A stretch of 64,000 bases of DNA from Ignavibacteriales bacterium CG07_land_8_20_14_0_80_59_12. Its GTDB lineage: Bacteria > Bacteroidota > Ignavibacteria > 0-14-0-80-59-12. The stretch spans positions 5,104-69,103 of the forward strand of contig PEWR01000061.1 in assembly GCA_002779395.1 (NCBI GenBank), given 5' to 3'. Under the pieces are notes generated by a model. That model made no database searches, was not told the origin of the DNA, and worked only from the letters and a program-made list of their open reading frames with translations. Below are positions 24,869 to 57,698 of the stretch, in pieces (the first letter of the stretch is position 1; the number at the start of each line of letters is the position of its first letter). Both the position numbers and the translations under genes were made by a program.

Positions 24869-26245
24869 TCATGGATTCAGTCTTGTCAGCACATCTCTTA
24901 TCTTCCTGAGACCTTCGTCCAGCTCATCCTTTTGGATATTGAGAGCCGGACGGAACCGGATCGTTCTCTCGCCGCAGCCCAGCATCAGGACCCCTTCCTC
25001 GTACAGCTCGCTCCGGAAGGTATTCCTCAACTGAGGCGTTGGGAAATCCATAGCGCAGAAAAGGCCCCTGCCCCTTGTGTTGCTGACCAGGGCCGGGAAT
25101 TCCCTTTCAATCACACGAAGCTCATCCAGAAGGTGAACGCCGAGCCTCGCCGCGTGGTCGACAAGCCTTTCCTCCTCGATGATTTCCAGGTACTTCGCGA
25201 CCCGCACCATGTCCGCGAGGTTCCCGCCCCAGGTCGAGTTCAGCCTCCCCGCCTTCTGGAACACGTTTCCCTCCACCTCGTCGATCCGGGTGCCTGCGAG
25301 AAAGCCGCAGATCTGAGTCTTTTTCCCGAACGCCATCATGTCCGGGTTCACAAAATGCTGATGGGCCCACATCTTGCCGGTCAATCCCACGCCCGTCTGG
25401 ATTTCGTCAAAAACGAGCATGAAGTCATTCTCGTCTGCCAGCAGCCTGAGCCCCTCCAGAAACTCCTTCCGGAAGTGGTTGTCCCCCCCCTCCGCCTGGA
25501 TCGGCTCAATGATAAGCGCTGCAACATTGTGCCCGTATTCACCAATCGCCCCCTTGATCTCGTCGACGGCGATTTCTTCGCGGCGTTTTACATCTTCAAG
25601 GTTTTTCTCGTTCAGAGGGAACCTGATCGCGGGGTTTGAAATCCTGGGCCATCTGAACTTCGGGAAGTAGTCAACCTTGACGGGATCGGTGTTTGTGAGG
25701 GAGATCGTGTAACCGGTCCGTCCGTGGAAGGCCTGCCGGAAATGAAGGACGACGAGCCTGCTCTCGTCTGCCGTTGAGCGGTAGAACCCTGACGCCAGGT
25801 TCTTCCTCATCTTCCAGTCGAACGCCGCCTTCAGCGCGTTCTCAACACCGAGCGCACCCCCCTCGATGAAGAAGACGTGCGGGAGATAGTCGGGCATCGC
25901 GATGCGCGCAAACGTGTCCACAAACTCCGCCATCTCAACTGTGTAGACGTCGGAGTTCGTCGGTTTGTTCACAGCCGCCCTGCCGATCTTCTCGATGAAT
26001 TCAGGCGTCATCATCTTCGGGTGGTTCATGCCGATGGGAGCCGAGGCGAAGTACGAGAAGAGGTCGAGGAACCACCTGTCGTGCCGCGCATCGTAGATGC
26101 GTGAGCCGTGGCTTTTCCCTATGTCGACCACGAGGTCAAAACCGTCCGCCAGCATGTGCTTTCCGAGGATCTCGTGCACATCGCGGGGGGTGATCGGTGA
26201 CCGGGTCTGGATCCGCCCGAGAGCGGCCGTCTGAAACTCTGCCAT
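24869..26245 (-). CDS. lat: L-lysine 6-aminotransferase (class-III aminotransferase, LAT family)
   Basis: DGFDLVVDIGKSHGSRIYDARHDRWFLDLFSYFASAPIGMNHP is an LAT-type N-terminus. A PLP-lysine region is present. Confidence 0.8.
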   Translation of the reverse strand: MAEFQTAALGRIQTRSPITPRDVHEILGKHMLADGFDLVVDIGKSHGSRIYDARHDRWFLDLFSYFASAPIGMNHPKMMTPEFIEKIGRAAVNKPTNSDVYTVEMAEFVDTFARIAMPDYLPHVFFIEGGALGVENALKAAFDWKMRKNLASGFYRSTADESRLVVLHFRQAFHGRTGYTISLTNTDPVKVDYFPKFRWPRISNPAIRFPLNEKNLEDVKRREEIAVDEIKGAIGEYGHNVAALIIEPIQAEGGDNHFRKEFLEGLRLLADENDFMLVFDEIQTGVGLTGKMWAHQHFVNPDMMAFGKKTQICGFLAGTRIDEVEGNVFQKAGRLNSTWGGNLADMVRVAKYLEIIEEERLVDHAARLGVHLLDELRVIEREFPALVSNTRGRGLFCAMDFPTPQLRNTFRSELYEEGVLMLGCGERTIRFRPALNIQKDELDEGLRKIRDVLTRLNP

Positions 26246-26259
26246 AGCGACCTCACATC

Positions 26260-27753
26260 CTATTGGTTGTACGTATCAATCTGTGCCTTCTGGAGCTTAC
26301 CGCTGAAATCGACGTACACCGTTTTCCACTCGGTATAGAAATCGAAAACAGTCCATCCGCCTTCGCGATGGCCGTTGCCGGTCTGCTTTACGCCGCCGAA
26401 CGGCATATGCGCCTCGGCGCCGATTGTCGCACCGTTGATGTAGGTGATGCCCGCCTCGATATCGCGCATTGCACGGAAGGCCCGGTTCACGTCCTGCGTG
26501 AAGATGGAAGAGGAGAGCCCATAGCTGGTCCCGTTCAGGACATCGACCGCCTCTTCGAATGATTTCACTGTGAGGACAGAGAGGACCGGTCCGAAGATCT
26601 CCTCCACGGCGATCCGCATCGCGGGAGTGACCCCGTCGAAGATCGTCGGCTTGTAGAACCATCCCAAGTCGAGGTCACCGCCCGTCGCGGCTTCACCGCC
26701 GAGGACAAGCTTCGCGCCCTCCTGCCTGCCGATTTCGACGTAGCTGTGGACCCTCTCGCGCTGCCCTTCATTAATGCAGGGACCCACCTCAACATCGGGC
26801 AGAAGCCCGTCGCCGAGCCGGAGCTTCGACGCCCGGTTGATGAGCATCTTCATGAACATGTCGTGGATCTTCTCGTGAAGAATGAGGCGGCTGGTCGCTG
26901 TGCACCTCTGTCCGGTGGTACCGAACGCTCCCCAGAGCACCGCATCAAGCGCGAGATCGAGGTTCGCATCATCCATCACGATCTGCGCGTTCTTGCCTCC
27001 GAGCTCGAGCGAGATCCGCTTCAGAGTGCGGCTCCCCACTTCGGAAAGCTTCTTCCCGACGACAGTCGAGCCGGTGAAGCTCAACGCATCGACGTCCGTG
27101 TGCTCGACAATGGCGTTCCCGACTTCTCCTCCGCCGCCGTGAACAATGTTGATGACACCCGTCGGCAGCCCCGCTTCCTCGAGGATCTTCACGAGCATCG
27201 TGGCGGTCGCCGGCGTGTCGGAGGCGGGCTTGAAGACAACTGTGTTCCCCGAGACGAGCGCCGGGAAGATCTTCCACGTTGGAATCGCCATTGGGAAGTT
27301 CCACGGTGTGACAACGCCGACAACGCCGATCGGCACGCGGAAGGAGAGATTCATTTTGTTGGGGAGCTCGGAGGGCGCGTTCATTCCGAAGAGCCTCCGC
27401 CCTTCCGTGGCAGCGTAGTAGCCGGTATCGATCCCTTCCTGCACGTCGCCGCGTGTCTCGAGGAGCACTTTCCCCATCTCGCGTGTCATGAGACGGGCGA
27501 TTTCTTCCTTGCGCGCTACGAGGAGGTCGGCCGCCTTTCGAACGATGTCGCCTCGTTTGGGCGCAGGGACCAGACGCCATGTCTTGAAAGCCGCCCTGGC
27601 GGCCTTCACTGCTTCATCCACATCTTCTTTCGATGACTTCGGGAAGGTACCGACGACCTCATCCCAGCGTGCCGGGTTCCGATCTTCAAAGGTCCTCCCG
27701 GATTTCGTATCAACCCATTGACCGTTGATGTAGTTCTGAAATTTCTCCGACAT
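26260..27753 (-). CDS. Aldehyde dehydrogenase, probably piperideine-6-carboxylate/aminoadipate-semialdehyde dehydrogenase
   Basis: The start is placed at ATG 27753 (MSEKFQNYINGQWV) with an AAAGGAG RBS. The track ORF extends to 27960. ALDH motifs ELGGKN and the catalytic Cys region GQRCTA are present. It lies 15 nt downstream of lat. Confidence 0.85.
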   Translation of the reverse strand: MSEKFQNYINGQWVDTKSGRTFEDRNPARWDEVVGTFPKSSKEDVDEAVKAARAAFKTWRLVPAPKRGDIVRKAADLLVARKEEIARLMTREMGKVLLETRGDVQEGIDTGYYAATEGRRLFGMNAPSELPNKMNLSFRVPIGVVGVVTPWNFPMAIPTWKIFPALVSGNTVVFKPASDTPATATMLVKILEEAGLPTGVINIVHGGGGEVGNAIVEHTDVDALSFTGSTVVGKKLSEVGSRTLKRISLELGGKNAQIVMDDANLDLALDAVLWGAFGTTGQRCTATSRLILHEKIHDMFMKMLINRASKLRLGDGLLPDVEVGPCINEGQRERVHSYVEIGRQEGAKLVLGGEAATGGDLDLGWFYKPTIFDGVTPAMRIAVEEIFGPVLSVLTVKSFEEAVDVLNGTSYGLSSSIFTQDVNRAFRAMRDIEAGITYINGATIGAEAHMPFGGVKQTGNGHREGGWTVFDFYTEWKTVYVDFSGKLQKAQIDTYNQ

Positions 27754-27934
27754 TCCGCAGCTCCTTTCAGTTACGGCTGAAGCGAATCGACGGTCGTTGA
27801 CGGTGGCGCATTCGACCTGGCGCGAAGAGGATGCCGAGGAACGGGATTCTCGGGCATCCGTGGAACATGCGAATTGCGATGTGTTCAGCAGCGTTGGGAT
27901 AAAGGTGCGTCCCGTGCCTGGTGGGAAAGCTGGA

Positions 27935-29308
27935 TCACTGCATCGTCCCCTTGCTCTCATCCGCAGCGCGTGCCGTCTGCGCGCGTGTTGTGTCGGACCT
28001 CACATTCACGGGTTGTCTAAGTCCTGCCCGCTCAAAGATTTCATCAACGTGACGGAAGGCTTTTGCAGTGTCGAATACCTCGTTGATCTCCTCGCGGCTC
28101 AACTTCGCCAAGACACTGGCATCCCCTTCGATGAGGTCCCGGAACTTCTCGTGCGTCCGCCATGCCTGCATCGCGTGTTCCTGGACGATCGCGTAAGCAA
28201 CCTCGCGCGAAACCCCTTTCTGAACCAGCGCAAGAAGGAGCGCCTGCGAGAAAATGAGTCCGCCCGTGCGCTCAAGGTTCCTTACCATTGACTCGGGATA
28301 CACCTGCATCCCGCGGACCACATCCGTGAACGTGGTCAGCATGTTGTCGAGGAGGATACACGAGTCGGGGAGAATAATCCGTTCGACGGATGAATGCGAG
28401 ATGTCCCGTTCATGCCAGAGCGTGATGTTCTCCATCGCGGCAAGCGCATTTCCCCGCAGGACGCGCGAAAGCCCGGCCAGGCGCTCGCATGTGACCGGAT
28501 TCCGCTTGTGCGGCATCGCGGAAGAGCCCTTTTGTCCGGCAGCGAACGGCTCTTCCACTTCGAGAACCTCCGTCCTCTGGAGATGCCTGATCTCGGTCGC
28601 GAACTTTTCGATCGACGAGCCGATAAGAGCGATGGTCGTCATGAACTCCGCGTGCCTGTCACGCTGGATGATCTGGGTGGAGACCGGCGCGGGAGTGAGC
28701 CCGAGCTTCCCGCAGACATACATTTCGACGAACGGGTCAAGGTGCTCGTATGTCCCAACGGCGCCGGAAATCTTGCCGGCGGAGACTGTGTCTTTCGCAC
28801 GCCGCAGGCGCTCCTCGTGCCTTCCCAGCTCGTCGTACCAGATGGCAAGCTTCAAGCCGAATGTGATCGGCTCTGCGTGCACACCGTGCGTCCGTCCGAT
28901 CATCGCGGTCGTCTTGAACTCCCGGGCTCTCTCTCCCACCGCCGAGCGGAGAGATGAGAGGTCCGACTCAAGGAGCTCTGCCGACTGCCTGAGCTGGACG
29001 GCGAGTCCGGTGTCGAGGACATCCGACGATGTCATCCCGTAATGGATGTGGTGCGCCAGAGGCCCGACGTTGTCGCCCACGTTTGTGAGGAAGGCGATAA
29101 CGTCATGCTTCACCTGCCGCTCGATCTCGTCAATCCGGGCGGTGTCAAAGCGTGCTTTGCGGCGAATCTCTTCGACGTCACTCCGCGGAATCTCTCCGCG
29201 CTCGGCCCGCGCCTCGCAGGCGAGGAGCTCGATCTCGAGGAAGACACGGAATCTGTTCTCTTCGGACCAAATCTGCCCCATCTCCGGACGTGTGTAGCGG
29301 GGGATCAT
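27935..29308 (-). CDS. purB: Adenylosuccinate lyase
   Basis: GSSAMPHKRNP fumarate-lyase signature; 457 aa. Confidence 0.9.
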   Translation of the reverse strand: MIPRYTRPEMGQIWSEENRFRVFLEIELLACEARAERGEIPRSDVEEIRRKARFDTARIDEIERQVKHDVIAFLTNVGDNVGPLAHHIHYGMTSSDVLDTGLAVQLRQSAELLESDLSSLRSAVGERAREFKTTAMIGRTHGVHAEPITFGLKLAIWYDELGRHEERLRRAKDTVSAGKISGAVGTYEHLDPFVEMYVCGKLGLTPAPVSTQIIQRDRHAEFMTTIALIGSSIEKFATEIRHLQRTEVLEVEEPFAAGQKGSSAMPHKRNPVTCERLAGLSRVLRGNALAAMENITLWHERDISHSSVERIILPDSCILLDNMLTTFTDVVRGMQVYPESMVRNLERTGGLIFSQALLLALVQKGVSREVAYAIVQEHAMQAWRTHEKFRDLIEGDASVLAKLSREEINEVFDTAKAFRHVDEIFERAGLRQPVNVRSDTTRAQTARAADESKGTMQ

Positions 29309-39580: not shown

Positions 39581-39609
39581 TTGAAACATCGTTCGGCTTG
39601 CGGTATATT
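39581..39609 (+). promoter_or_regulatory. Strong sigma70-type promoter TTGAAA-N17-TATATT for the multihaem cytochrome gene, followed by a ~125-nt structured 5' UTR
   Basis: ttgaaacatcgttcggcttgcggtatatt. Downstream there are nested inverted repeats gagaagcc/ggcttctc and cttgc/gcaag before the GGAGGAG RBS. Confidence 0.5.
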
Positions 39610-39736
39610 GTCACGTTGCGCCGTGCCTCAAGAGCTGTGCTGGGTGCAGGCTCTCGCATTGCCGCCGGCCTCTGTGAGAGAAGCCTTGCGCGGCAAGCGG
39701 GGCTTCTCGAGGCCGCCAACAACGGAGGAGAAAGGA

Positions 39737-41233
39737 ATGAGAAGGAAGAGGTTCCCGGATATACTGTACAACCCCATCAGCATGGTCGGAGCGGGCATTG
39801 CGACTGTCAGCTTCGTGATGATTGTGTTCTTGATGCTCGTTGACATCGTTACCGCCGCGCCGGCTCCCTACCTGGGTATCATCACTTTCATCCTGCTTCC
39901 TGCCATCCTCATCCTCGGCCTCATCATCGTCTCGGTCGGTGTTCTGGCGGAGCGTCGCCGGCGGCATCGCATGACCGGCATCGAAAAACCCCCTCTCCCG
40001 CGGATTGACTTGAATGAACCGAGACAGCGGACGGCGTTCTTCTTCTTCTCCACCGGCACTATCGTGCTGCTCCTTTTCAGCGCCGTCGGCAGCTACCGGG
40101 CATTCGAGTTCACCGAATCGGTCCAGTTCTGCGGCACGCTTTGCCATGAAGTCATGAACCCTGAATACACTACGTACCGTCATTCCCCGCACGCACGCGT
40201 GCGATGCGTCGACTGCCACGTCGGCTCAGGAGCGAGCTGGTACGTGCGATCGAAGCTTTCGGGCGTGTATCAGATCTACGCCGCCCTCTTCGATAAATAC
40301 CCCCGCCCGATCCCAACGCCGATCAAGAATCTGCGTCCCGCCAGGGAGACATGTGAGGAGTGTCACTGGCCGGGTGCTTTTCTCGGCGAGAAGAGGATCA
40401 CGAAAGAATACTTCCTCTCGGATTCCGGAAATTCTGCCTGGACTCTCGATATGCTCCTGAAGATCGGAAGCGGGACAGTGGCCGAGGAGCCGCGTCCGGG
40501 CGTCCACTGGCACGTTTCCAACACTATCGTAAAGTATATCGCAACCGACTCGATACTGCAGGTCCTCCCCTGGGTGAGCCTCGAGCAGCCGGGCAAGAAG
40601 CCGATCATTTACGTCTCCGAGGAGAATCCCATATCTGACGAACAAATGAGAGAAGCGAAGGTCGCGACCGTGGACTGCATGGATTGCCACAACCGCCCAA
40701 CGCATATCATACGGAATCCGACCGACGCCGTGAATGCCGCGATGGCGAAAGGAAGCATCAACCCGACGCTTCCGCTTGCCAAGAAGATCTCCGTCCAGGC
40801 GCTCATCCCTAACTACACGTCAGAGGAGACGGCGTTTGACAGCATCGGGATTCAGTTGAGGGAGTATTACCAGCAGAACTACCCGCAGATATTCACGAGC
40901 CGAAAGGGCGACATTGAATCGGCCGTAACTGCGCTCAAGGCCATCTACCAGGAGAACTTTTTCCCATACATGCGCGTCGACTGGCGGGCGTACCGAAACA
41001 ACATCGGCCACCACAATACCGCGGGCTGCTTCCGGTGCCATGACGGCAAGCACAAGAGCAGCGACGGCCGCGTCATCTCGAATGACTGCCAAACCTGTCA
41101 CGTGATCCTCGCACAGGGGAGGAGCCTCGCGAGGGAGGCGAACCTCTTCGGCCTCCCATTTCAGCACCCGGCCGATGTCGGGGACGCCTGGAAGACCACG
41201 CTGTGCAGCGACTGCCACGACGGAACACAGTAG
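39737..41233 (+). CDS. Membrane-anchored heptahaem c-type cytochrome: NapC/NirT-like N-terminal module plus an extra multihaem C-terminal domain
   Basis: Seven CxxCH motifs (CGTLCH, CVDCH, CEECH, CMDCH, CFRCH, CQTCH, CSDCH). N-terminal TM helix. NapC/NrfH-type spacing of haems 1-2 (C..CH...SPH..VRCVDCH). The start is placed at ATG 39737 with a GGAGGAG RBS. The track ORF starts at an upstream TTG. Confidence 0.85.
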   Translation: MRRKRFPDILYNPISMVGAGIATVSFVMIVFLMLVDIVTAAPAPYLGIITFILLPAILILGLIIVSVGVLAERRRRHRMTGIEKPPLPRIDLNEPRQRTAFFFFSTGTIVLLLFSAVGSYRAFEFTESVQFCGTLCHEVMNPEYTTYRHSPHARVRCVDCHVGSGASWYVRSKLSGVYQIYAALFDKYPRPIPTPIKNLRPARETCEECHWPGAFLGEKRITKEYFLSDSGNSAWTLDMLLKIGSGTVAEEPRPGVHWHVSNTIVKYIATDSILQVLPWVSLEQPGKKPIIYVSEENPISDEQMREAKVATVDCMDCHNRPTHIIRNPTDAVNAAMAKGSINPTLPLAKKISVQALIPNYTSEETAFDSIGIQLREYYQQNYPQIFTSRKGDIESAVTALKAIYQENFFPYMRVDWRAYRNNIGHHNTAGCFRCHDGKHKSSDGRVISNDCQTCHVILAQGRSLAREANLFGLPFQHPADVGDAWKTTLCSDCHDGTQ

Positions 41234-43253: not shown

Positions 43254-43310
43254 TCAGGTGACGGTACCGTTGATGGGTGTGAGAAGGGGCTCAGAAACTG
43301 GCGAGTTTTG

Positions 43311-43384
43311 TACGCCCGGGGGGATTCGAACCCTCAACCCTCAGCTCCGTAGGCTGATGCTCTATCCAGTTGAGCTACGGGCGC
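43311..43384 (-). tRNA. tRNA-Arg (anticodon ACG)
   Basis: Cloverleaf: GCGCCCG/TA/GCTC-AACTGGATA-GAGC/A/TCAGC-CTACGGA-GCTGA/GGGTT/GAGGG-TTCGAAT-CCCCC/CGGGCGT/A. G1-U72 pair. One A-C mismatch in the T-stem. CCA is not encoded. Confidence 0.9.
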
Positions 43385-43401
43385 ATGACAATCCACTCAG
43401 A

Positions 43402-43430
43402 AATTTAGCAATTCGACAGATCGTTTGCAA
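43402..43430 (-). promoter_or_regulatory. Sigma70-type promoter TTGCAA-N17-TAAATT for tRNA-Arg
   Basis: The -10 box ends 17 nt before the mature tRNA 5' end. Confidence 0.45.
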
Positions 43431-43718
43431 ACTGCCGACGGCGAGACACAAATCACGCGCCCCTCTTGAAACGGTTCACGGTTGGATCCACCTCGAGTAC
43501 TCAGTGGGCCTGAAGAAGAGAATCCTCACATCGGGAGCAAACAGAAATGTCCTCACCTGCTCATCAAGGTAGGGGCTTCTCTCAAAGCCCTCAAGTCTCG
43601 CTGACGATGTGCAGCCTGAGAATTGAAGGGCAAGAGCGAGAATGCAACCAACGAAGAGGGCCCGCGTTGATGCAAGCGAGTTCGGAAGGGATTCCTGCGT
43701 CGAGGGGACGCCGCAGAA

Positions 43719-44984
43719 TTACCGACTCTTCCCTTTCGTGAGGGAAGTCAACTGCAGTTCGATCCGCTTCCCTTCACTCCGGGCCCCGATGATGCGGTAA
43801 TGCGCTTTCGCACGTTCCAGAGCCGCACGCGCAGGAGCTTCTTCGCCGCGCGCAAGGGCAAGCTGTCCGAGCTCCTCGTACGATTCGGCAAGGTTCAGCG
43901 GATTACGATATTCCTCGTTGATGCGGATACTTGTCTGCAGGTAAAGCTCGGCGACATCCAGGTCCCCCATGGCGCGTTGGATGCCCGCCTTCACTTTGTA
44001 AACGTCGGCCATGCCCAGACGGTCGTCAAGCTCACGGAAGACTGAAAGCGCACGGTTGGCAAATGCGACGGCGAGCGGGTAATCTCCCTGCTTCTGGTGA
44101 AGAGCCGACTTGCCGAGGTACGAGAGCCCGATGAGCGGCTTGTACTCAGCGCGAGCCGAGTAGCCAAGGCTCATGTCAAACTGCCCGAGTGCCTCGGTGT
44201 GCTCCCCCTTCGCAAGGTACATCATCGCGTAGTTGTGATGGAGCTCCGCGAGTCTGGTGAGACTCCCGAGCTCTTCGAACCGTGGAAGGACCTGCTGGTA
44301 GAAAATGAGCGCCTCGTCGTGCTTCCCTTGTATGTTCGCCAGGATGCCGAGGTCCATCGTCACGACTGCCGACATCTCGGCTTGCTTCGCCCGCTCGAAC
44401 ATGCTGCGGGCTTTCCGCATGTGCGCGGCGGCCTCCTTCAGGTCACCGCGCTCTGCAAGCGAAATACCGAGGTGGTTCTCCACACGAGCAAGGCCAAGCT
44501 GGTCCTTGGCCCGGGTGAAGTGTTTCGCCGCCTGGTGGAGGTCGGCATGGGCTTGTTCCCACTTCGCCTGCCGGAGAAAGATCTCGGCCCGTCTTGTGAG
44601 CGCCATGCCTGCAGCGCGTGCAAACCGCAGGGAGCTGCCCGCCCTCTCAACAACAAGGTCGGCAAGCCGCTCTGCAGTCGGATAGTCACCGGTCGTCACG
44701 CTGAGCGCGGCTGCCTCGTTTGCGAGGTCGAGGAAACTCTCCTTCGGCAGCGCCCTCTCGCATTCGGTTATCGCGGCCTCGAGATAGAATGATTCATCCC
44801 CTCCGCGCTTCTCGCCCGGAATGCCAGCGGCCTTTCCCAGAAGCTGCTCCTCGGACTCCTGCAGCTTTTCAATATCGGACCGTATTCTCTTCAGGAGCGC
44901 GTCGTCGCAGAACCTGCCCAGAAGGTCCCACAAGGATCCCCCCTTAGCCTCCGGTGAGGAGGCGTCCACTTGCGCCTTTTTCAT
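43719..44984 (-). CDS. Tetratricopeptide-repeat protein
   Basis: Multiple TPR-like helical repeats (alternating A/L/G/Y patterns). No signal peptide. 421 aa. Confidence 0.75.
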   Translation of the reverse strand: MKKAQVDASSPEAKGGSLWDLLGRFCDDALLKRIRSDIEKLQESEEQLLGKAAGIPGEKRGGDESFYLEAAITECERALPKESFLDLANEAAALSVTTGDYPTAERLADLVVERAGSSLRFARAAGMALTRRAEIFLRQAKWEQAHADLHQAAKHFTRAKDQLGLARVENHLGISLAERGDLKEAAAHMRKARSMFERAKQAEMSAVVTMDLGILANIQGKHDEALIFYQQVLPRFEELGSLTRLAELHHNYAMMYLAKGEHTEALGQFDMSLGYSARAEYKPLIGLSYLGKSALHQKQGDYPLAVAFANRALSVFRELDDRLGMADVYKVKAGIQRAMGDLDVAELYLQTSIRINEEYRNPLNLAESYEELGQLALARGEEAPARAALERAKAHYRIIGARSEGKRIELQLTSLTKGKSR

Positions 44985-44998
44985 ATGTCAGGCAGCCC

Positions 44999-45601
44999 TC
45001 AGAACCCGAATCCGTAGCGGGAGAAATGGGGTATTTCTCCATCCTCGCAGACTATCTTTCCTCGAGACCGAGAGACCGTGATGTTGGCGCTCATCGGCTC
45101 CCATGAAGCGGTCGCAGGATCGTACCAGTAAAGATGGACGTTGGCCCCCTCCGGAACCGCCGACAGATCGAGGCCGGTCGTCGTCATGTCGAGAAGCGCT
45201 GGCGTTCGGAACGCCGTCCCCCCGGGTCCGAAGTCCGCTGCAAGCATCTCATCATCAAGCGCAATGCTGAACCATCCGCTCTCGCTGATCGACTGCGGCG
45301 CTATCCGAAGAGACATGTCCGTCCTCACCGTCACAGCACGCCCCTCATCGAGGTATTCCCCATGCACCTTCAGCAGGCCACCAGACAGAGCAGTGATGAA
45401 CTTACTCACTGTGATGTCCTTCGAGAGCGGTCCCCCCCCAGAGCGCGGCAGAAAGATGAGGGTCGGTGTTGGGCTGACTGACCCTGTACCAACCGCAGGA
45501 TTGGCAGGCACACCGACAGGATTATCCAGTGTCGAGCACCCTGCAAGAAGGGTCATCACAGCGACGAGGACGATCCCGAAAATCATGTTCGGGCGCTTCA
45601 T
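44999..45601 (-). CDS. Hypothetical lipoprotein
   Basis: The start is placed at ATG 45601 (MKRPNMIFGIVLVAVMTLLAGCS) with an AGGAAAGGA RBS. The track ORF extends to 45694. It ends in ...GFGF. Confidence 0.6.
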   Translation of the reverse strand: MKRPNMIFGIVLVAVMTLLAGCSTLDNPVGVPANPAVGTGSVSPTPTLIFLPRSGGGPLSKDITVSKFITALSGGLLKVHGEYLDEGRAVTVRTDMSLRIAPQSISESGWFSIALDDEMLAADFGPGGTAFRTPALLDMTTTGLDLSAVPEGANVHLYWYDPATASWEPMSANITVSRSRGKIVCEDGEIPHFSRYGFGF

Positions 45602-46029
45602 TCCTTTCCTCCTTGGGATGTTCGAACAATGCCTGCATGAAGGCGTGCAAATACTATGCCAGTAGTCGCAGGTCATCGCAGAAAGCAACGGCAAAAGAGC
45701 TTACACTGGCCGTCTGAAGCTCTACAAGAGGGAGGGAAGGTGAAACTGTAATGAAACGTTACACCTCATCGTAACGTCCTGTTGCAGAACTCGTGCGGAC
45801 AGACCTGACCGGCCCTCTGGATGGGGACACGCGGTCCGGCCGGCGAACCCTTAGGAGCATCAGGCTGCCTGCGGGGAGTCCACCCTGATCGCAGTTTGCG
45901 ATCCACTCTTGCGAGTCTCATTGGAAGCTGCATCTGGATTAGGCGGAGGGATCTCGTCCTCAACCGGCATGGGTTGGTTGAGACAAGAAATCAGCTGAGG
46001 GAAAAGGGAGAAGACTGGTGCGCGGCTTG

Positions 46030-46102
46030 TAGCGCTAACGGGAATCGAACCCGTATTTCAGCCTTGAGAGGGCTGCGTCCTAAACCGTTAGACGATAGCG
46101 CC
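46030..46102 (-). tRNA. tRNA-Glu (anticodon CTC)
   Basis: GGCGCTA/TC/GTCT-AACGGTTTA-GGAC/G/CAGCC-CTCTCAA-GGCTG/AAAT/ACGGG-TTCGATT-CCCGT/TAGCGCT/A. Confidence 0.85.
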
Positions 46103-46109
46103 GCTGAAG

Positions 46110-46182
46110 CTGCCCGGCCAGGGCTCGAACCTGGACTTTTCTGATCCAGAGTCAGACGTGTTGCCAATTACACCACCGGGCA
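46110..46182 (-). tRNA. tRNA-Gln (anticodon CTG)
   Basis: TGCCCGG/TG/GTGT-AATTGGCA-ACAC/G/TCTGA-CTCTGGA-TCAGA/AAAGT/CCAGG-TTCGAGC-CCTGG/CCGGGCA/G. It has the U1-A72 pair typical of bacterial tRNA-Gln. It is 7 nt from tRNA-Glu. Confidence 0.85.
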
Positions 46183-46194
46183 GTTCCGTTCAAT

Positions 46195-46223
46195 AAAATA
46201 CCACTATCGAGTTTCAAAATCAA
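46195..46223 (-). promoter_or_regulatory. Sigma70-type promoter TTGATT-N17-TATTTT for the tRNA-Gln/tRNA-Glu pair
   Basis: The -10 box ends 12 nt before the tRNA-Gln 5' end. Confidence 0.45.
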
Positions 46224-46339
46224 GACGCTCTCGATGTGTTGAACCCGTTTCAGACTCCTTGCATTTCAGCGGCCACTTGCGTAATTTTTTTTACCTCGAA
46301 TGATGACTTCGTTTCTTACCATCAGTTGTCCGGGCATCC

Positions 46340-46822
46340 ATGGCGACGTTCCGCGGCGTTGATTACTACAGTCTCGGCTCCCTCCTCTCTCCCGAAGAAA
46401 TCCTCGTCCGTGATACGATACGCGAATTCGTGGACGACAACGTTCTCCCGATTATTGAGAGGCACTACAGGGAAGGCACATTTCCCCTGGAGCTCGTCCC
46501 GAGGATGGCTGAGCTGGGCCTTCTGGGTGCCACCCTCCCCGGGAAATACGACTGTGCAGAAATGAACAACGTCGCCTGCGGGCTCATCATGCAGGAGCTC
46601 GAACGCGGCGACAGCGGTGTTCGAAGTTTCGCCTCGGTCCAAAGCGCGCTCGAGATCGCCCGCACCGCGCGGGAGATACTCGGTGCGAACGGCATCCTTG
46701 ACGAGTATCCCGTGATGCGGCACATGGCTAACCTGGAATCAGTGAAGACGTATGAGGGAACGCACGAGATGCAGACGCTCATCATCGGCGCCGACATCAC
46801 CGGAATAGAATCGTACCGATAG
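46340..46822 (+). pseudogene. Glutaryl-CoA dehydrogenase-like acyl-CoA dehydrogenase with a ~270-aa in-frame internal deletion (N-terminal ~100 aa fused to C-terminal ~60 aa)
   Basis: The N-terminus ...[52 protein letters not shown]...[25 protein letters not shown] joins directly to the C-terminal helix [54 protein letters not shown]. The whole middle beta domain and the catalytic region are absent. Confidence 0.55.
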
Positions 46823-46873
46823 ACGGCTCATGCTTGGTACTTTCTCCGCTGCAACGCGGAGCCGGCACGATGA

Positions 46874-48418
<1,545 letters not shown>

Positions 48419-52114: not shown

Positions 52115-53034
52115 AGATACTCGTCACAGGCGGAGCGGGCTTCATAGGTTCACACATCGTCGACGCCTACATAGCCGCTGGGCATGACGTGGCGGTGATT
52201 GATAACCTCTCCACGGGAAGGCGTGAGAACATCCAACACGCGGCCCGCTTCTATGAACTCGACATACGCAGCAAGGCAATCGGAGAAGTGTTCGAGCGTG
52301 AGCGCTTCGACGTTGTGAACCACCAGGCGGCTCAAATCGATGTCCGGAAGTCCGTCAAGGATCCCGTCGAAGACGCCTCCGTGAACATTCTTGGCGGCCT
52401 GAACCTCCTGGAGAGCGCGCGAAGGACCGGTGTGGACAAGATCATCTTCTCCTCCACGGGCGGTGCGATCTATGGCGAACAGGACTGCTTCCCGGCCGAC
52501 GAGTCCCATCCCACACGACCCGTTTCTCCGTACGGCGTCGCGAAACTTGCACTGGAGCACTACTTGTTCTACTATCGGCAGGCGCACGGCCTTGAGTACT
52601 GCGTGCTCCGGTACGCCAATGTCTACGGCCCCCGCCAGAACTCGAACGGTGAAGCCGGCGTCGTGGCGATTTTCACGAGCAAGATGCTGACAGGCGAGCA
52701 ACCGGTCATCAACGGCGACGGGCACCAGACGAGGGATTATGTCTATGTCTCGGACGTCGCGCGTGCCAACGTTCTCGCTCTCTCCCTCGACCACTCGGAC
52801 GTCTTCAACATCGGAACGGGCATTGAAACCGACGTGCGTCAGCTCCTCCACATGCTCTCCGGGCTCATCGGGGCCAGGGCGCCGGAAGTGTACGCACCCG
52901 CCAAGGCGGGTGAGCAGATGAGGAGCGTGATCTCGTGGCGGAAGGTCCACGACGCACTCGGCTGGCAACCCGATACGCCTCTTGAGGAGGGATTACGTCG
53001 TACCGTCGACTCATTCCGGAAGGCTCTCGTATGA
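52111..53034 (+). CDS. NAD-dependent sugar epimerase/dehydratase (GalE-like SDR)
   Basis: TGGAGFIGSH Rossmann motif and YxxxK region (YGVAKLALEHY). Confidence 0.85.
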   Translation: MKILVTGGAGFIGSHIVDAYIAAGHDVAVIDNLSTGRRENIQHAARFYELDIRSKAIGEVFERERFDVVNHQAAQIDVRKSVKDPVEDASVNILGGLNLLESARRTGVDKIIFSSTGGAIYGEQDCFPADESHPTRPVSPYGVAKLALEHYLFYYRQAHGLEYCVLRYANVYGPRQNSNGEAGVVAIFTSKMLTGEQPVINGDGHQTRDYVYVSDVARANVLALSLDHSDVFNIGTGIETDVRQLLHMLSGLIGARAPEVYAPAKAGEQMRSVISWRKVHDALGWQPDTPLEEGLRRTVDSFRKALV

Positions 53035-53990
53035 GCCACGACCGCGAGAACTGCAGCGCGCTCGTGGATGGGGTCGTCCGGGGGGACAAGCGTGCCCTCG
53101 CGCGCGCGATCTCGCTCGTTGAGAGTTACCGGCCGGAATCGGAGACGCTCCTCAAGGTCATCTTCGCGAAAACCGGCCGCGCGTACAGGGTGGGGATCAC
53201 AGGTCCACCAGGTGCCGGCAAGAGCACACTCGCATCGAGGATCGCTCGTCACTACGGCAACCGGGGGTTGAAAGTGGGGATCATTGCCGTCGATCCGACA
53301 AGTCCATTCACCGGCGGCGCGCTGCTGGGGGACCGTGTCCGTATGAGCGATGTTGAGCTTGACGGAAGCGTGTTCATCAGAAGCATGGCCTCGAGGGGAA
53401 GCCTCGGGGGGTTGAGCGTCGCGACGCAGGACGCGGCCGATGTCCTCGACGCGGCGGGGTTCGATCTCATCCTGCTCGAGACCGTCGGCGTGGGACAGTC
53501 GGAGCTTGACGTGGTCCGCGCCGCCGACACGGTCATCGTGGTCCTTGTCCCTGAATCCGGCGACTCGATCCAGGCGATGAAGGCGGGCCTCATGGAGATC
53601 GCGGACCTCTTTGTGATGAACAAGTCCGACCGCCCGGGAGCCGACCAGGCGGCAACGGCGCTGAGAACCATCCTTTCTCTCCGGCCGAACCCGCACAGCT
53701 GGACACCTGAAGTGCTGAAGACAACCGCGAGCGAGTCGCAGGGGATTGACCGGGTCTGCACCTTCATCGAGAAGCATCGCGAATTCCAGTCGTCGAACGG
53801 CCTCCTCGAACAGCGGCGCGCTGCCCGGCTGCAGGAGAAGGTGAAAGAGCTCGTGATCCGCTCTCTCCATACCGAGTTCTGGAACAACGAACGCCGCGAG
53901 CTCCTCGAGGCCAGGCTCCCCTCCCTCTGCGAGCGGTCAACCTCTCCGTACGAGGTCGTCGAAGAACTCTTGCGTACGTTCCCTTTGTGA
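53031..53990 (+). CDS. meaB: Methylmalonyl-CoA-mutase-associated GTPase MeaB/ArgK
   Basis: G1 motif GITGPPGAGKST, VDPTSPFTGGALLGDRVRM and the NKSD G4 motif. Confidence 0.9.
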   Translation: MSHDRENCSALVDGVVRGDKRALARAISLVESYRPESETLLKVIFAKTGRAYRVGITGPPGAGKSTLASRIARHYGNRGLKVGIIAVDPTSPFTGGALLGDRVRMSDVELDGSVFIRSMASRGSLGGLSVATQDAADVLDAAGFDLILLETVGVGQSELDVVRAADTVIVVLVPESGDSIQAMKAGLMEIADLFVMNKSDRPGADQAATALRTILSLRPNPHSWTPEVLKTTASESQGIDRVCTFIEKHREFQSSNGLLEQRRAARLQEKVKELVIRSLHTEFWNNERRELLEARLPSLCERSTSPYEVVEELLRTFPL

Positions 53991-54057
53991 ATCGCCGCCC
54001 CGTCAGACACCTGCCCCTTGGCGGGGGGTCAAGATAGGGCATTCGTTCCGCAACCAT

Positions 54058-55248
54058 TTGACAGGGTGGACTGCCATGCCTGACGCACACGCTCCTTCCG
54101 GAATCGAATTCTCCTTCACTGACACGATGAAGATGGTTCAATCGCTTGCACGCGACTTCGCTGTCTCGGAGATCAGACCCGTCGTCGTGAAATACGACGA
54201 GTCGCAGGAGTTCCCATTCGACCTCGTGCGTAAGATGGGGGAGCTCGGCTTCATGGGGATCCTGTTCCCGGATGAGTACGGCGGCGCCGGGTTCGGGTAC
54301 CTCGAGTACGTCGTGATCCTTGAGGAGCTTTCGAAGATTGACCCCTCGATCGGGCTCATCGTTGCCGCGCACAACAGCCTCTGTACCAACCACATCTACA
54401 GGTTCGGGAACACGAGCCAGAAAAAGGAGTACTTACCCGGTCTCTGCACCGGCCGAACCGTCGGCGCATGGGCGCTCACGGAGCCCGGGTCGGGAAGCGA
54501 TGCCGGTGCGATGAGGTCAACAGTTCGGCGCGAAGCCGACGCGTTCATACTCAACGGTTCAAAGGCCTTCTGCACAAACGGCTCGGTCGCAGGGACGGCA
54601 GTGGTCATGGCGGTAACCGATCCGTCGAAAGCGAAGAAAGGGATTTCCGCGTTCATCCTTGAGAAGGGTATGCAGGGCTTCTTCCCTTCGAAGAAGGAGA
54701 ACAAGCTCGGCATGCGGGCCTCTGACACATCGAGCCTGACGTTCGACAACGTGCGCATCCCACGGGGGAACCTCCTCGGTGAAGAGGGAAGCGGCTTCCG
54801 CCAGGCCCTCACGATCCTGGACGGCGGCCGCATCAGTATCGCCGCCCTCGCCCTCGGGATCGCGCAGGGGGCGCTCGGCGCAAGCGTGAAGTACTCCCGA
54901 GAGCGCGAACAGTTCGGGAAACCGATCGGCGAGTTCCAGGCCATCCAGTGGAAGCTCGCCGACATGGCAACGGAGATCGAGGCCGCACGGCTCCTCACGC
55001 TGAAAGCGGCGTTCCTCAAGGACCGGGGGAACGAGGTCGTCCTCGAGTCGTCCATGGCGAAGTACTACGCGAGCGAGGCGGCCGCCCGCGCGACATCGGA
55101 GGCTGTTCAGATCCACGGAGGCTACGGCTTCATCAAGGAATTCCCTGTGGAGAAGCTGTACCGCGATGTGAAGCTCACGACCATCGGCGAGGGGACATCG
55201 GAGATACAGAAGCTCATCATCGCACGGGAGCTTCTGAAGACGTTCTGA
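54058..55248 (+). CDS. Acyl-CoA dehydrogenase (short/branched-chain type)
   Basis: GAWALTEPGSGSDAGAM, the YAxE region and the catalytic E in the TTIGEGTSEIQ region near the C-terminus. Confidence 0.9.
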   Translation: MTGWTAMPDAHAPSGIEFSFTDTMKMVQSLARDFAVSEIRPVVVKYDESQEFPFDLVRKMGELGFMGILFPDEYGGAGFGYLEYVVILEELSKIDPSIGLIVAAHNSLCTNHIYRFGNTSQKKEYLPGLCTGRTVGAWALTEPGSGSDAGAMRSTVRREADAFILNGSKAFCTNGSVAGTAVVMAVTDPSKAKKGISAFILEKGMQGFFPSKKENKLGMRASDTSSLTFDNVRIPRGNLLGEEGSGFRQALTILDGGRISIAALALGIAQGALGASVKYSREREQFGKPIGEFQAIQWKLADMATEIEAARLLTLKAAFLKDRGNEVVLESSMAKYYASEAAARATSEAVQIHGGYGFIKEFPVEKLYRDVKLTTIGEGTSEIQKLIIARELLKTF

Positions 55249-55278
55249 AGCTGCGCCTTCATTCCCGTTCAGTCTGAG

Positions 55279-56943
55279 GTGAAGACCGTGTCACGCATCG
55301 GAAGCGAAGTCGCACACGACCTCACGTTCAACAGGCAGGATGACTCGCTGAGGAACATGGTGAGGATCCTTCGTGCCCGGGAGGAAACCGTCCGCGCCGG
55401 CGGCGGTGATGAGAACGTGGAGAGGCACCACAAGCGCGGCAAGCTCACCGCGCGCGAGAGAATCTCCAGGCTCATCGATCCCGGCCTGCCTTTCCTTGAG
55501 ATCGGCAGCTTCGCGGCGCACGGGATGTACGAAGAGTATGGCGGCGCTCCGTCGGCGGGTGTCGTGACCGGCATCGGGAGAGTTCAGGGGCGCGACGTCG
55601 TCATCGCGGCGAACGATGCGACTGTGAAGGCCGGTGCATGGTTCCCGATCACCTGCAAGAAGAACCTCCGCGCACAGGAGATCGCAATGGAGAACCGGAT
55701 CCCCATCGTTTACCTTGTCGATTCGGCGGGTGTCTTCCTCCCCCTCCAGTCCGAGATCTTCCCCGACAGGGAACATTTCGGGAGGATCTTCCGCAACAAC
55801 GCGGTCATGTCCGCGATGGGAATCCCGCAGATCGCCGCGATCATGGGCCCCTGCGTGGCCGGCGGCGCGTACCTCCCGATCATGAGTGACGAGGCGCTCA
55901 TCGTCGAAGGGACCGGGAGCGTGTTTCTCGCGGGCCCGCACCTCGTCCGTGCGGCGATAGGGGAGGACGCAGACATCGAGACGCTCGGCGGGGCGACGAC
56001 ACACTCTGAGATCAGCGGAGTCACCGACTACAAGGTGAAGAACGATGACGAGGCGATCCAGGCTCTTCGGAGCATTCTCGGCAAGCAGGGGAAACATCCC
56101 CGGGCCGGGTTCGACAGGATTCAGCCCGCACCGCCGCGCTTCGGACCCGAGGAGATTTACGGGATCATCCCAGATGACAGGTCCCGTCCCTTCGATATGT
56201 ACCAGGTCATCGCCCGCATCGTCGACGGCGGCGAAATCGACGAGTACAAGGCAGCATACGGAAAAACGCTCATCACCGCGTACGCGCGTGTCGACGGCTG
56301 GGCGGTGGCCATCGTCGCAAACCAGCGACGCGTCGTGAGGACACGGACGGGCGAGATGCAGATCGGCGGCGTCATCTACAGCGACAGCGCCGACAAGGCG
56401 GCCCGGTTCATCATGAACTGCAACCAGAAGCACATCCCTCTCGTTTTCTTCCAGGATGTCGCAGGCTTCATGGTGGGGACACGCGCCGAGCAGGGCGGGA
56501 TCATCAAGGACGGTGCAAAGATGGTGAACGCAGTCGCCAACAGCGTCGTACCCAAGATCACGTTCATCACCGGCAACAGCCACGGTGCGGGCAACTACGC
56601 CATGTGCGGCAAGGCCTATGACCCGCGATTCATCTTCGCCTGGCCGACAGCACAGATAGCCGTCATGGGAGGAGAGCAGGCAAGCGAGACACTTCTCAGC
56701 ATCCGCGTCAGCCAGCTCAAGAGGGAGGGGCGGCACCCGTCGGAGGCGGAGAAGAGGAAACTCCTCGACGAAATCCAGTCCCGCTATGAGGCGGAGGCCG
56801 ATCCTTATTTCGCCGCGGCGCGGCTCTGGATCGACGGCATCGTAGACCCGTGCGAAACACGCGGGCTCATTTCTCGTAGTATAGACATAGCGGACAATAA
56901 TCCCGACTTTCCTCCCTTCAAGCTTGGCGTGATCCAGGTGTGA
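55279..56943 (+). CDS. Acyl-CoA carboxylase carboxyltransferase subunit (methylcrotonoyl-/propionyl-CoA carboxylase beta-type)
   Basis: Two carboxyltransferase half-domains. GKLTARERI motif. GTG start with a GAGGTG RBS. 554 aa. Confidence 0.9.
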   Translation: MKTVSRIGSEVAHDLTFNRQDDSLRNMVRILRAREETVRAGGGDENVERHHKRGKLTARERISRLIDPGLPFLEIGSFAAHGMYEEYGGAPSAGVVTGIGRVQGRDVVIAANDATVKAGAWFPITCKKNLRAQEIAMENRIPIVYLVDSAGVFLPLQSEIFPDREHFGRIFRNNAVMSAMGIPQIAAIMGPCVAGGAYLPIMSDEALIVEGTGSVFLAGPHLVRAAIGEDADIETLGGATTHSEISGVTDYKVKNDDEAIQALRSILGKQGKHPRAGFDRIQPAPPRFGPEEIYGIIPDDRSRPFDMYQVIARIVDGGEIDEYKAAYGKTLITAYARVDGWAVAIVANQRRVVRTRTGEMQIGGVIYSDSADKAARFIMNCNQKHIPLVFFQDVAGFMVGTRAEQGGIIKDGAKMVNAVANSVVPKITFITGNSHGAGNYAMCGKAYDPRFIFAWPTAQIAVMGGEQASETLLSIRVSQLKREGRHPSEAEKRKLLDEIQSRYEAEADPYFAAARLWIDGIVDPCETRGLISRSIDIADNNPDFPPFKLGVIQV

Positions 56944-57698
56944 AAAGAAGAATCCTGATCCCGCTTCTCATCGCGTCCGCGATGGCCGCAGGGGCGCTCC
57001 ACGCCCTGCCGCGAAAACCAGCATCGGACCGCGACTCCATTCTCTTCCGGGCGGAGCGGATTCTTGTTGAGATCCGCGAATCGTACCACAGGTTCTCGCT
57101 GGGACGCAACGCGAGGGATATCATCCTCCCAGATTTCCTCAGGGATGCGCTTGAGCTGCAGGCGATGATCCGCGATGACCGTTTCGAGACGGTGCGTGCG
57201 ATCGTGACCGATGAGGAGCTCGTCGACCTCATCTACTGGCAGGCCATGGCCGTAAGCGACGGTGACGTGCGGCGCGGACTCCTTGTCATGACCCTCGCCG
57301 TCATGGACCACTGGAAACTCGGCCTGCGGCTGCGGCCCTTCGGTATCCTCCGCCTCCCCCTCACACTCGAATCCGAGGATGAGTTCCGTGTAAGGGCCTC
57401 GCGGCTTCCCAGGAACCTCTTCGGTGACACCCCGTCCGATGCGTACGGGGACAGGGACAAGTTGCAGCATTTCTTCGGTTCAGCGTATCTTACAGAGGGA
57501 CCCGGAGGAAAGACGTTCGCCGACGCAACGGGCGAGTTCGTGGAATGGGGGGAGTCGGCCTTTGTCGTGGGTGGAGTGAACGATGTGCGAGACGTGGCCG
57601 CGAACCGCCGTGGACAGGCCTTCGCACGCGCGCTCACCGCCAACCCTGATGCGCGTCCGTCCGATTTCCTCGGAGGCGACCTGAAACAATCACCCTGA
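56940..57698 (+). CDS. Hypothetical secreted protein
   Basis: Signal peptide MKRRILIPLLIASAMAAGALHA. No recognised domain. It overlaps the previous gene by 4 nt. Confidence 0.5.
   Translation: MKRRILIPLLIASAMAAGALHALPRKPASDRDSILFRAERILVEIRESYHRFSLGRNARDIILPDFLRDALELQAMIRDDRFETVRAIVTDEELVDLIYWQAMAVSDGDVRRGLLVMTLAVMDHWKLGLRLRPFGILRLPLTLESEDEFRVRASRLPRNLFGDTPSDAYGDRDKLQHFFGSAYLTEGPGGKTFADATGEFVEWGESAFVVGGVNDVRDVAANRRGQAFARALTANPDARPSDFLGGDLKQSP

Follow-up and report, generated by a model that had tools for sequence, protein, structure and literature searches.

An internal in-frame deletion has probably turned a glutaryl-CoA dehydrogenase gene into a pseudogene in a groundwater Ignavibacteriales population, with a parallel loss in a sister lineage

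In the current study, we analyzed a 160-codon open reading frame (ORF) in a 64-kb stretch of the genome of an uncultured groundwater Ignavibacteriales bacterium (CG07_land_8_20_14_0_80_59_12; contig PEWR01000061.1, positions 5,104 to 69,103). This whole stretch of 64,000 nucleotides is referred to here as the window and is numbered from its first letter. We consider it likely, with a probability of roughly 85%, that the ORF is a nonfunctional remnant, or pseudogene, of the orthologous gene for decarboxylating glutaryl-CoA dehydrogenase (GCDH), gcdH. The ORF starts with an ATG, runs from 46340 to 46822 on the + strand, and corresponds to codons 1 to 104 joined to codons 334 to 389 of the genes for P0121 and P0122, its 389-residue relatives; 229 codons (105 to 333, or 687 bp) are missing in frame. 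An earlier note on this DNA, made from the letters alone, had proposed just such a gcdH gene with a clean in-frame internal deletion. The pairwise alignment with full-length GCDH that it suggested has now mapped the end-points of the missing segment (codons 105 to 333), and the syntenic orthologues are indeed full length. The note had left the choice between a truncated protein and a recent pseudogene; a recent pseudogene is the most likely outcome, given that the junction is confined to alleles sharing 99% identity or more and that the remnant is still 87% identical to its orthologue. The features of the locus are listed below; L008, L013, and L016 are homologous loci described in the following paragraphs.

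46029..46182, − strand: tRNA-Glu(ctc) and tRNA-Gln(ctg), found by ARAGORN and Rfam; the same tRNAs lie 5′ of intact gcdH in L013 and L016
46183..46339, + strand: upstream noncoding region, the presumed promoter region of a gcdH-guaB unit, from alignment with L008, L013, and L016; the start codon is in register with the orthologue start codons
46340..46651, + strand: 5′ gcdH remnant, codons 1 to 104, carrying PF02771; collinear with P0121/P0122, 86/104 identical
46577..46579, + strand: codon 80, TGC (Cys); L008 and 119/119 full-length orthologues have Tyr here
46646..46651, + strand: deletion junction GCGCTC (Ala103-Leu104), the single kept copy of a short in-phase direct repeat, as judged from the L008 left flank and the orthologue right flank
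46652..46822, + strand: 3′ gcdH remnant, codons 105 to 160 (full-length 334 to 389) plus stop, carrying the tail of PF00441; 53/56 identical to P0121
46665..46672, + strand: CCGCGCGG, site at which the 138-codon deletion of L008 ends, 15 bp 3′ of the window junction
46907..48418, + strand: guaB (IMP dehydrogenase), conserved 3′ neighbor of gcdH

The reading of the ORF as GCDH over its first ca. 100 and last ca. 60 residues, made by eye in the earlier note, was confirmed by Pfam, by comparison with solved structures, and by alignment with the 389-residue orthologues. Pfam placed the N-terminal acyl-CoA dehydrogenase (ACAD) domain (PF02771, Acyl-CoA_dh_N) on residues 17 to 104 (model positions 1 to 88 of 113; E = 9e-22) and the C-terminal domain (PF00441, Acyl-CoA_dh_1) on residues 101 to 152 (model positions 97 to 148 of 150; E = 6e-9), and it returned no match to the middle domain, PF02770, so that the three-domain ACAD architecture (N-terminal alpha, middle beta, C-terminal alpha) is incomplete. 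The top matches among solved structures were all GCDHs, each split in two pieces; against the Thermus thermophilus enzyme (2eba_A; E = 1.7e-42), residues 7 to 105 align with 2 to 100 and residues 99 to 158 with 325 to 384. The match to GCDH is far above chance and is reproducible across independent assemblies. As a whole, the ORF scored below every NCBIfam cutoff (best matches, 54 to 64 bits; cutoffs, 470 to 640). At 160 instead of 389 residues, and with an essential middle domain gone, it shows the shortening and domain loss typical of a pseudogene. The product has been deposited at NCBI as PIU45467.1, a [quoted passage not shown]

The ORF occupies the orthologous gcdH locus. The closest full-length proteins were sought by a second protein search, made in a collection of 5.8 billion clustered proteins with the 251-residue product of L008 (P0002) as the query. 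The nearest, P0121 and P0122, have 389 residues and are 79 to 80% identical to P0002; with a score of 439 bits against 2eba across its full length, P0121 is a genuine GCDH. In the loci of these relatives (L013 to L018), minus-strand genes for tRNA-Arg(acg), tRNA-Glu(ctc), and tRNA-Gln(ctg) are followed by a 389-codon gcdH and guaB, and 3′ of guaB lie genes for an M24 peptidase and a glycosyltransferase, purD, an epimerase gene, meaB, and another ACAD gene. The window has the same gene order, with the 160-codon ORF in place of gcdH between tRNA-Gln (46109 to 46182) and guaB. We also scanned genome contigs with P0002 (GTDB genomes; best match, 75% identity; the species of the window is not in that collection), which yielded 80 loci from related species of Ignavibacteria and Bacteroidota. 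Full-length gcdH is present in 76 of these, and guaB lies directly 3′ of it on the same strand in at least 43 of the 80, the gap being 4 bp in the closest relatives. In every relative examined, the syntenic gene encodes 388 to 389 residues. Despite this conserved pairing, there is no evident functional connection between gcdH (lysine/tryptophan catabolism) and guaB (GMP synthesis).

Two trivial explanations of so short a gene would be an error of assembly and membership in a family of short proteins. The window does stem from an assembly of the metagenome type, in which a deletion could in principle be simulated by a collapsed or chimeric join although the organism has an intact gcdH. However, the 160-residue protein occurs on 39 indexed contigs (9 + 5 + 4 + 19 + 1 + 1), either exactly or as one of five variants with one or two substitutions, and all 24 loci that we fetched, from 24 samples, have the identical junction and no stop codon. 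These loci derive from three assembly sources, namely, ENA (with MEGAHIT and SPAdes contig names), JGI, and Logan, and represent five nucleotide haplotypes of the ORF. The sequence shared at the junction (6 to 8 bp) is far shorter than assembler k-mers, and the protein collection contained no intact allele or middle-domain fragment of more than 80% identity. An artefact is thus very improbable: the deletion is real, the earlier note's own reservation about a collapsed assembly is not upheld, and no form of the gene other than the deleted allele was found in this Ignavibacteriales population. It is hardly more credible that the ORF belongs to a genuine, conserved family of ACAD-like proteins that never had a middle domain. 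Our first search, which returned nothing longer than 280 residues and whose list was therefore enriched for short gcdH deletion cases, did find other proteins of 146 to 280 residues with N- and C-terminal ACAD domains and no middle domain. Yet each of these has its own junction, most come from one source labeled “src,” some contain scrambled stretches, and one, P0111, sits in an unrelated gene context; the contig that encodes another, P0043, has generally fragmented genes. We therefore rejected these N-plus-C “fusion” proteins as a family. In the protein collection, only near-identical 160-residue proteins share the architecture of the ORF, and its junction was found only in six protein variants that are at least 99% identical to one another. 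Together with the full-length gene at the syntenic position in all relatives, the differing junctions dispose of the short paralogue family, the case that the earlier note had named as one that would overturn its reading. Some unrelated lineages have in-frame internal gcdH deletions of their own, represented by P0111 (L099, 4001 to 4441) and P0050, of 146 and 153 residues; both resume at ...RHMANLESV....

In an AlphaFold2 (AF2) model of P0121, the left breakpoint lies inside helix 92-112, the fifth long helix of the N-terminal alpha-domain, and the right breakpoint lies inside helix 318-343. Missing are the end of the N domain, the whole beta-domain (strands 132 to 226), and, in the C-terminal domain, two and a half helices from its start, or about two thirds of that domain, up to full-length residue 333. 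The earlier note had stated that the middle beta-domain and the active-site region were both lost. The former is gone, but the catalytic glutamate, its tyrosine neighbor, and the substrate-binding arginine are all still encoded. Based on the residue equivalences and fold description available for the human and Burkholderia enzymes (PMC3169403), E139 of the ORF (orthologue column E368, in KTYEGTHEM) is the catalytic Glu (Glu374 in Burkholderia, Glu370 in human), Y138 is human Tyr369 (the Y138-E139 codons lie at 46751 to 46756), and R95 is human Arg94, which binds the terminal carboxylate of the substrate. The columns of these three residues are invariant in 119 orthologues. S99, the equivalent of human Ser98, also lies within the 5′ remnant. 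Judged from these alignments, then, the lost portion is the FAD (flavin adenine dinucleotide)-binding and substrate-channel scaffold and not the catalytic residues. With the FAD-binding beta-domain and most C-domain helices gone, the remnant is almost certainly inactive as a dehydrogenase despite the retained Glu, Tyr, and Arg, and it follows from the known fold (PMC3169403) that the canonical FAD pocket and tetramer interface should be unable to form. AF2, run with a 28-sequence alignment, gave the remnant a mean confidence (pLDDT) of 43 and a predicted template modeling score (pTM) of 0.42, with no residue reaching 70, whereas the same sequences yielded a full-length P0121 control with a pLDDT of 68.7, a pTM of 0.74, and the correct alpha-beta-alpha topology.

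The junction, which the earlier note had placed within SFASVQSA..., falls inside SFASVQS[AL] at 46646 to 46651. Across it, the window reads CAA AGC GCG CTC/GAG ATC GCC (the slash marks the junction); L008 retains the original left flank, AGC GCG CTC/GTC ATG TAC, and the right flank in the orthologues (codons 331 to 335) is CAC GCG CTT/GAG ATA. Both breakpoints therefore appear to lie within an Ala-Leu codon pair, GCGCT(C/T), in identical phase, and one copy is left. Microhomology, which the note had suggested looking for, is thus probably present (GCGCTC in the L008 left flank, GCGCTT in the orthologue right flank); its length is put at 5 to 8 bp, with the right-hand copy seen only in 80%-identical orthologues, as GCGCTT. 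No ancestral intact allele was found among the 5.8 billion clustered proteins. Exact-pattern scans of a metagenome contig collection for alleles with the left or the right flank intact gave no match either, but these two results carry no weight, since the right-flank pattern occurs in JGI contigs (L004) and that collection evidently does not include these samples. The arrangement fits a slippage-type or other microhomology-mediated deletion between short in-phase repeats, and the shared codon phase of the two repeat copies would account for the in-frame product. We propose that a single 687-bp deletion, with breakpoints in two in-phase, G+C-rich GCGCTC copies encoding Ala-Leu, would have occurred by replication slippage or another microhomology-mediated route in a recent ancestor of this species-level lineage. 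Slippage at G+C-rich repeats with a bias toward deletion is known from bacterial genomes in decay, in which, under neutrality, frameshifts should outnumber in-frame events by two to one (PMC4948707).

A sister lineage has lost a different piece of the same gene. L008 (Logan SRR22388182) shares the synteny of the window, with flanking DNA that is ca. 1 to 4% diverged, and encodes the 251-residue P0002, in which codons 1 to 201 and 340 to 389 are kept and 138 codons (202 to 339) are deleted in frame. Its junction reads TCC GCG C/GG GAG ATA, where the orthologues have TCT GCT CCC GAA ATG on the left and ATG GCA AGG GAG ATT on the right. L008 keeps 97 codons that are missing from the window, and the window keeps five codons (EIART) that are missing from L008. 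Because each allele retains ancestral sequence that the other has lost, the two deletions are independent, and we rejected the idea that one is nested in, or derived from, the other. For P0002, too, no intact allele of more than 80% identity was found among the 5.8 billion clustered proteins; its identity to the intact 389-residue product of the closest relatives is 80%. Evidently, gcdH is dispensable in this lineage, and the sister lineage has independently lost a different internal segment. The right breakpoints of the two deletions are only 15 bp apart. Moreover, both junctions coincide with preexisting G+C-rich, 8-bp palindromes with a GCGC core: the window junction lies inside AGCGCGCT (46643 to 46650), and that of L008 is at CCGCGCGG. 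Such palindromes have a background density of 2.7 per kb in the window, and the coincidence could reflect either a deletion hotspot or chance.

The 160-residue alleles themselves form two sublineages, A (the window group) and B (L101 to L104), whose relationship to L008 depends on the segment compared. The upstream genes group B (L101) with L008 (36 differences versus 79 to 85 per 1976 nt), whereas the intergenic/tRNA segment groups A (window) with B (L101) (13 differences versus 22 to 23 per 645 nt). These conflicting groupings point to homologous recombination within the species. The local phylogeny switches near window position 45695, beside the remnant.

How old is the deletion, and has the remnant been free to change since? 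Over its 160 residues, the remnant is 87% identical to P0121, compared with 81% for guaB and 56 to 73% for other neighbors, and its alleles differ from one another at only 0 to 9 of 483 nt. The remnant has barely decayed, and the deletion is therefore young. Y80C is derived and common to all fetched haplotypes of the 160-residue allele; D13G, F4Y, I113V, M129I, and G68V are derived within its sublineages. Polarized changes give 5 to 6 nonsynonymous and 4 to 5 synonymous substitutions in the remnant after the deletion, against 9 and 64 between the intact gcdH genes of L013 and L016 (ratio of nonsynonymous to synonymous rates [dN/dS], 0.04; Fisher p = 0.002 to 0.01 versus the remnant), or 4 and 21 if only the same 160 codons are counted (p = 0.04 to 0.08). 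In L008, the retained middle segment carries N162S, D175N, and G185S, all at sites invariant in 119/119 orthologues. These counts are suggestive, though weakly so, of relaxed constraint on the remnant.

A further question is whether the remnant is still expressed. Its start codon and upstream region are retained, and guaB begins 84 bp past its stop codon, with a GGAGGA-like site 9 nt before the guaB ATG. The + strand of the upstream region (46183 to 46339) showed no convincing match to a sigma-70-type consensus, and the promoter there is a presumed one. In the spacer before guaB, a consensus scan found only a weak terminator-like site with a 5-bp stem, and Rfam, run on the whole window and on 46150 to 46950, returned three tRNAs only and so neither a riboswitch nor a leader RNA in the gap separating the remnant from guaB. 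Given the retained upstream signals and the lack of any notable terminator or known RNA element, transcription of the guaB unit probably still takes in the remnant as its first cistron, and the remnant may perhaps be translated into an unstable peptide.

Several observations run counter to a simple pseudogene. The ORF has stayed open, with its start and stop codons, in two sublineages that differ at 8 of 483 nt. Segregating nonsynonymous and synonymous differences in the remnant (4 to 5 versus 5; ratio of the polymorphism rates [pN/pS], ca. 0.25) resemble those of guaB, pepP, the glycosyltransferase gene, and purD (29 versus 34, pooled; Fisher p = 1, in an underpowered comparison), and they are marginally below the neutral expectation (binomial p = 0.06 to 0.10), so some residual purifying selection may still be acting on the peptide. 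The AF2 result is weak evidence, as the alignment was shallow and of low diversity, and the exact length of the microhomology depends on 80%-identical orthologues and not on an ancestral allele. One alternative is that the remnant is kept by selection, either as a translated, nonpolar leader cistron for the guaB operon or as a 160-residue helical peptide with a new function. Besides its pN/pS, which equals that of functional neighbors, this would account for two independent in-frame deletions in sister lineages that leave the 5′ end and the last 51 to 56 codons in place and end 15 bp apart, in a gene paired with guaB, on its promoter-proximal side, in at least 43 of the 80 related species and lying 4 bp from it in the closest relatives. 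Nevertheless, we regard selective retention as improbable. Two in-frame events out of two have a chance probability of about 1/9, and deletions between in-phase repeats are in frame automatically; guaB, 84 bp away with its own Shine-Dalgarno-like site, is not tightly coupled to the remnant in translation. The 3′ remnant shows no unusual nucleotide conservation relative to the relatives, Y80C and other changes strike conserved residues, AF2 gave no confident fold, and there is no family of short proteins beyond the near-identical alleles. A related idea, to which we allow a slender but slightly better chance, concerns the resemblance of the two deletions: as both spare the first 104 to 201 and last 51 to 56 codons and end 15 bp apart, at AGCGCGCT and CCGCGCGG, they may reflect selected nonpolar loss within a gcdH-guaB unit, with the remnant serving as a translated leader cistron, or else a hotspot for deletion at GCGC palindromes. 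On balance, we favor a recent, nonfunctional gcdH pseudogene.

The earlier note had also drawn attention to lysine catabolism, stating that the window encodes both L-lysine 6-transaminase (lat) and the semialdehyde dehydrogenase. The genes concerned are the following.

24869..26245, − strand: lat, L-lysine 6-transaminase, intact (TIGR03251, 651 bits against a cutoff of 520.8; residues 21 to 453 of 458)
26260..27960, − strand: aldehyde dehydrogenase adjoining lat, with only subthreshold matches to aldehyde dehydrogenase equivalog models

The claim is secure for lat. The second gene reached no equivalog cutoff (381 bits against a cutoff of 730 for the piperideine-6-carboxylate dehydrogenase model, NF050084), and a role as an aminoadipate-semialdehyde/piperideine-6-carboxylate dehydrogenase is plausible at most. 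As annotated, this ORF has 566 residues, with homology from about residue 70, and its first 26 nt overlap the end of purB (27935 to 29308); translation probably starts at an internal codon instead. Unless a second copy of gcdH exists, the usual route from glutaryl-CoA to crotonyl-CoA would be closed, with lysine 6-transaminase still intact. We considered the other ACAD encoded in the window (54058 to 55248) as a replacement and rejected it, as it is only 35% identical to GCDH and lacks the equivalents of the Arg and Tyr. It follows meaB (53031 to 53990), is of the short-chain type (best match, acryloyl/butyryl-CoA type, below the cutoff), and is followed by a carboxyltransferase gene of the mmdA/acyl-CoA carboxylase beta family (55279 to 56943) and a 252-residue ORF with no Pfam hit; this stretch (53031 to 57698) may be an acyl-CoA catabolic cluster rather than a GCDH substitute.

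On its 5′ side, the locus differs in gene order from its relatives. A 2.6-kb insertion (43385 to 46028) parts tRNA-Arg (43310 to 43384) from tRNA-Glu (46029 to 46102), which adjoin in L013 and L016, and carries genes for a tetratricopeptide repeat protein (43719 to 44984, − strand) and a hypothetical protein without a Pfam match (44999 to 45694, − strand). In another locus, L106, a pair of IS110-family transposase genes lies 5′ of the remnant instead of this insertion. Farther 5′ is a multihaem cytochrome c gene (39581 to 41233) whose product has a NapC/NirT-like N terminus and a c7/c3-like C terminus; relatives have pgi at this position, and synteny thus breaks 5′ of the tRNA cluster.

In practical terms, anyone reconstructing the metabolism of this groundwater Ignavibacteriales population would do better to treat PIU45467.1 as a gcdH pseudogene than as an acyl-CoA dehydrogenase. 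More generally, the locus offers a natural example of ongoing gene loss, in which two sister lineages have cut different internal pieces from gcdH, apparently by way of short G+C-rich repeats; of the samples examined, 24 contain the deleted allele. No new kind of system comes to light here; the ORF appears to be a recent pseudogene of the ordinary sort, of mild interest for the parallel loss.

Compared with authentic GCDHs (EC 1.3.8.6; T. thermophilus 2EBA, human 1SIQ/1SIR, and Burkholderia pseudomallei 3EOM), the remnant is collinear over the first 104 and the last 56 residues and shares with them the catalytic Glu, its Tyr neighbor, and the Arg that binds the carboxylate. It differs in having 41% of the normal length, with 229 residues missing, and in lacking the seven-stranded beta-domain that walls the FAD site. 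Engineered nonpolar in-frame deletions are a tool of bacterial genetics. The gcdH deletion resembles these in that the start, stop, and operon signals are kept, so that guaB should stay expressed, although in this case the deletion is natural. A further parallel is with the slippage pseudogenes of “Candidatus Sodalis pierantonius” (Clayton et al. 2016, PMC4948707). That organism is a host-restricted symbiont, whereas ours is a free-living groundwater population; the 687-bp deletion is much longer than most slippage indels, and its right-hand repeat copy is deduced from orthologues. As in S. pierantonius, however, a short G+C-rich repeat appears to bound the deletion and one copy of it is kept, the gene is apparently dispensable, and an in-frame outcome is to be expected in about one third of such events.

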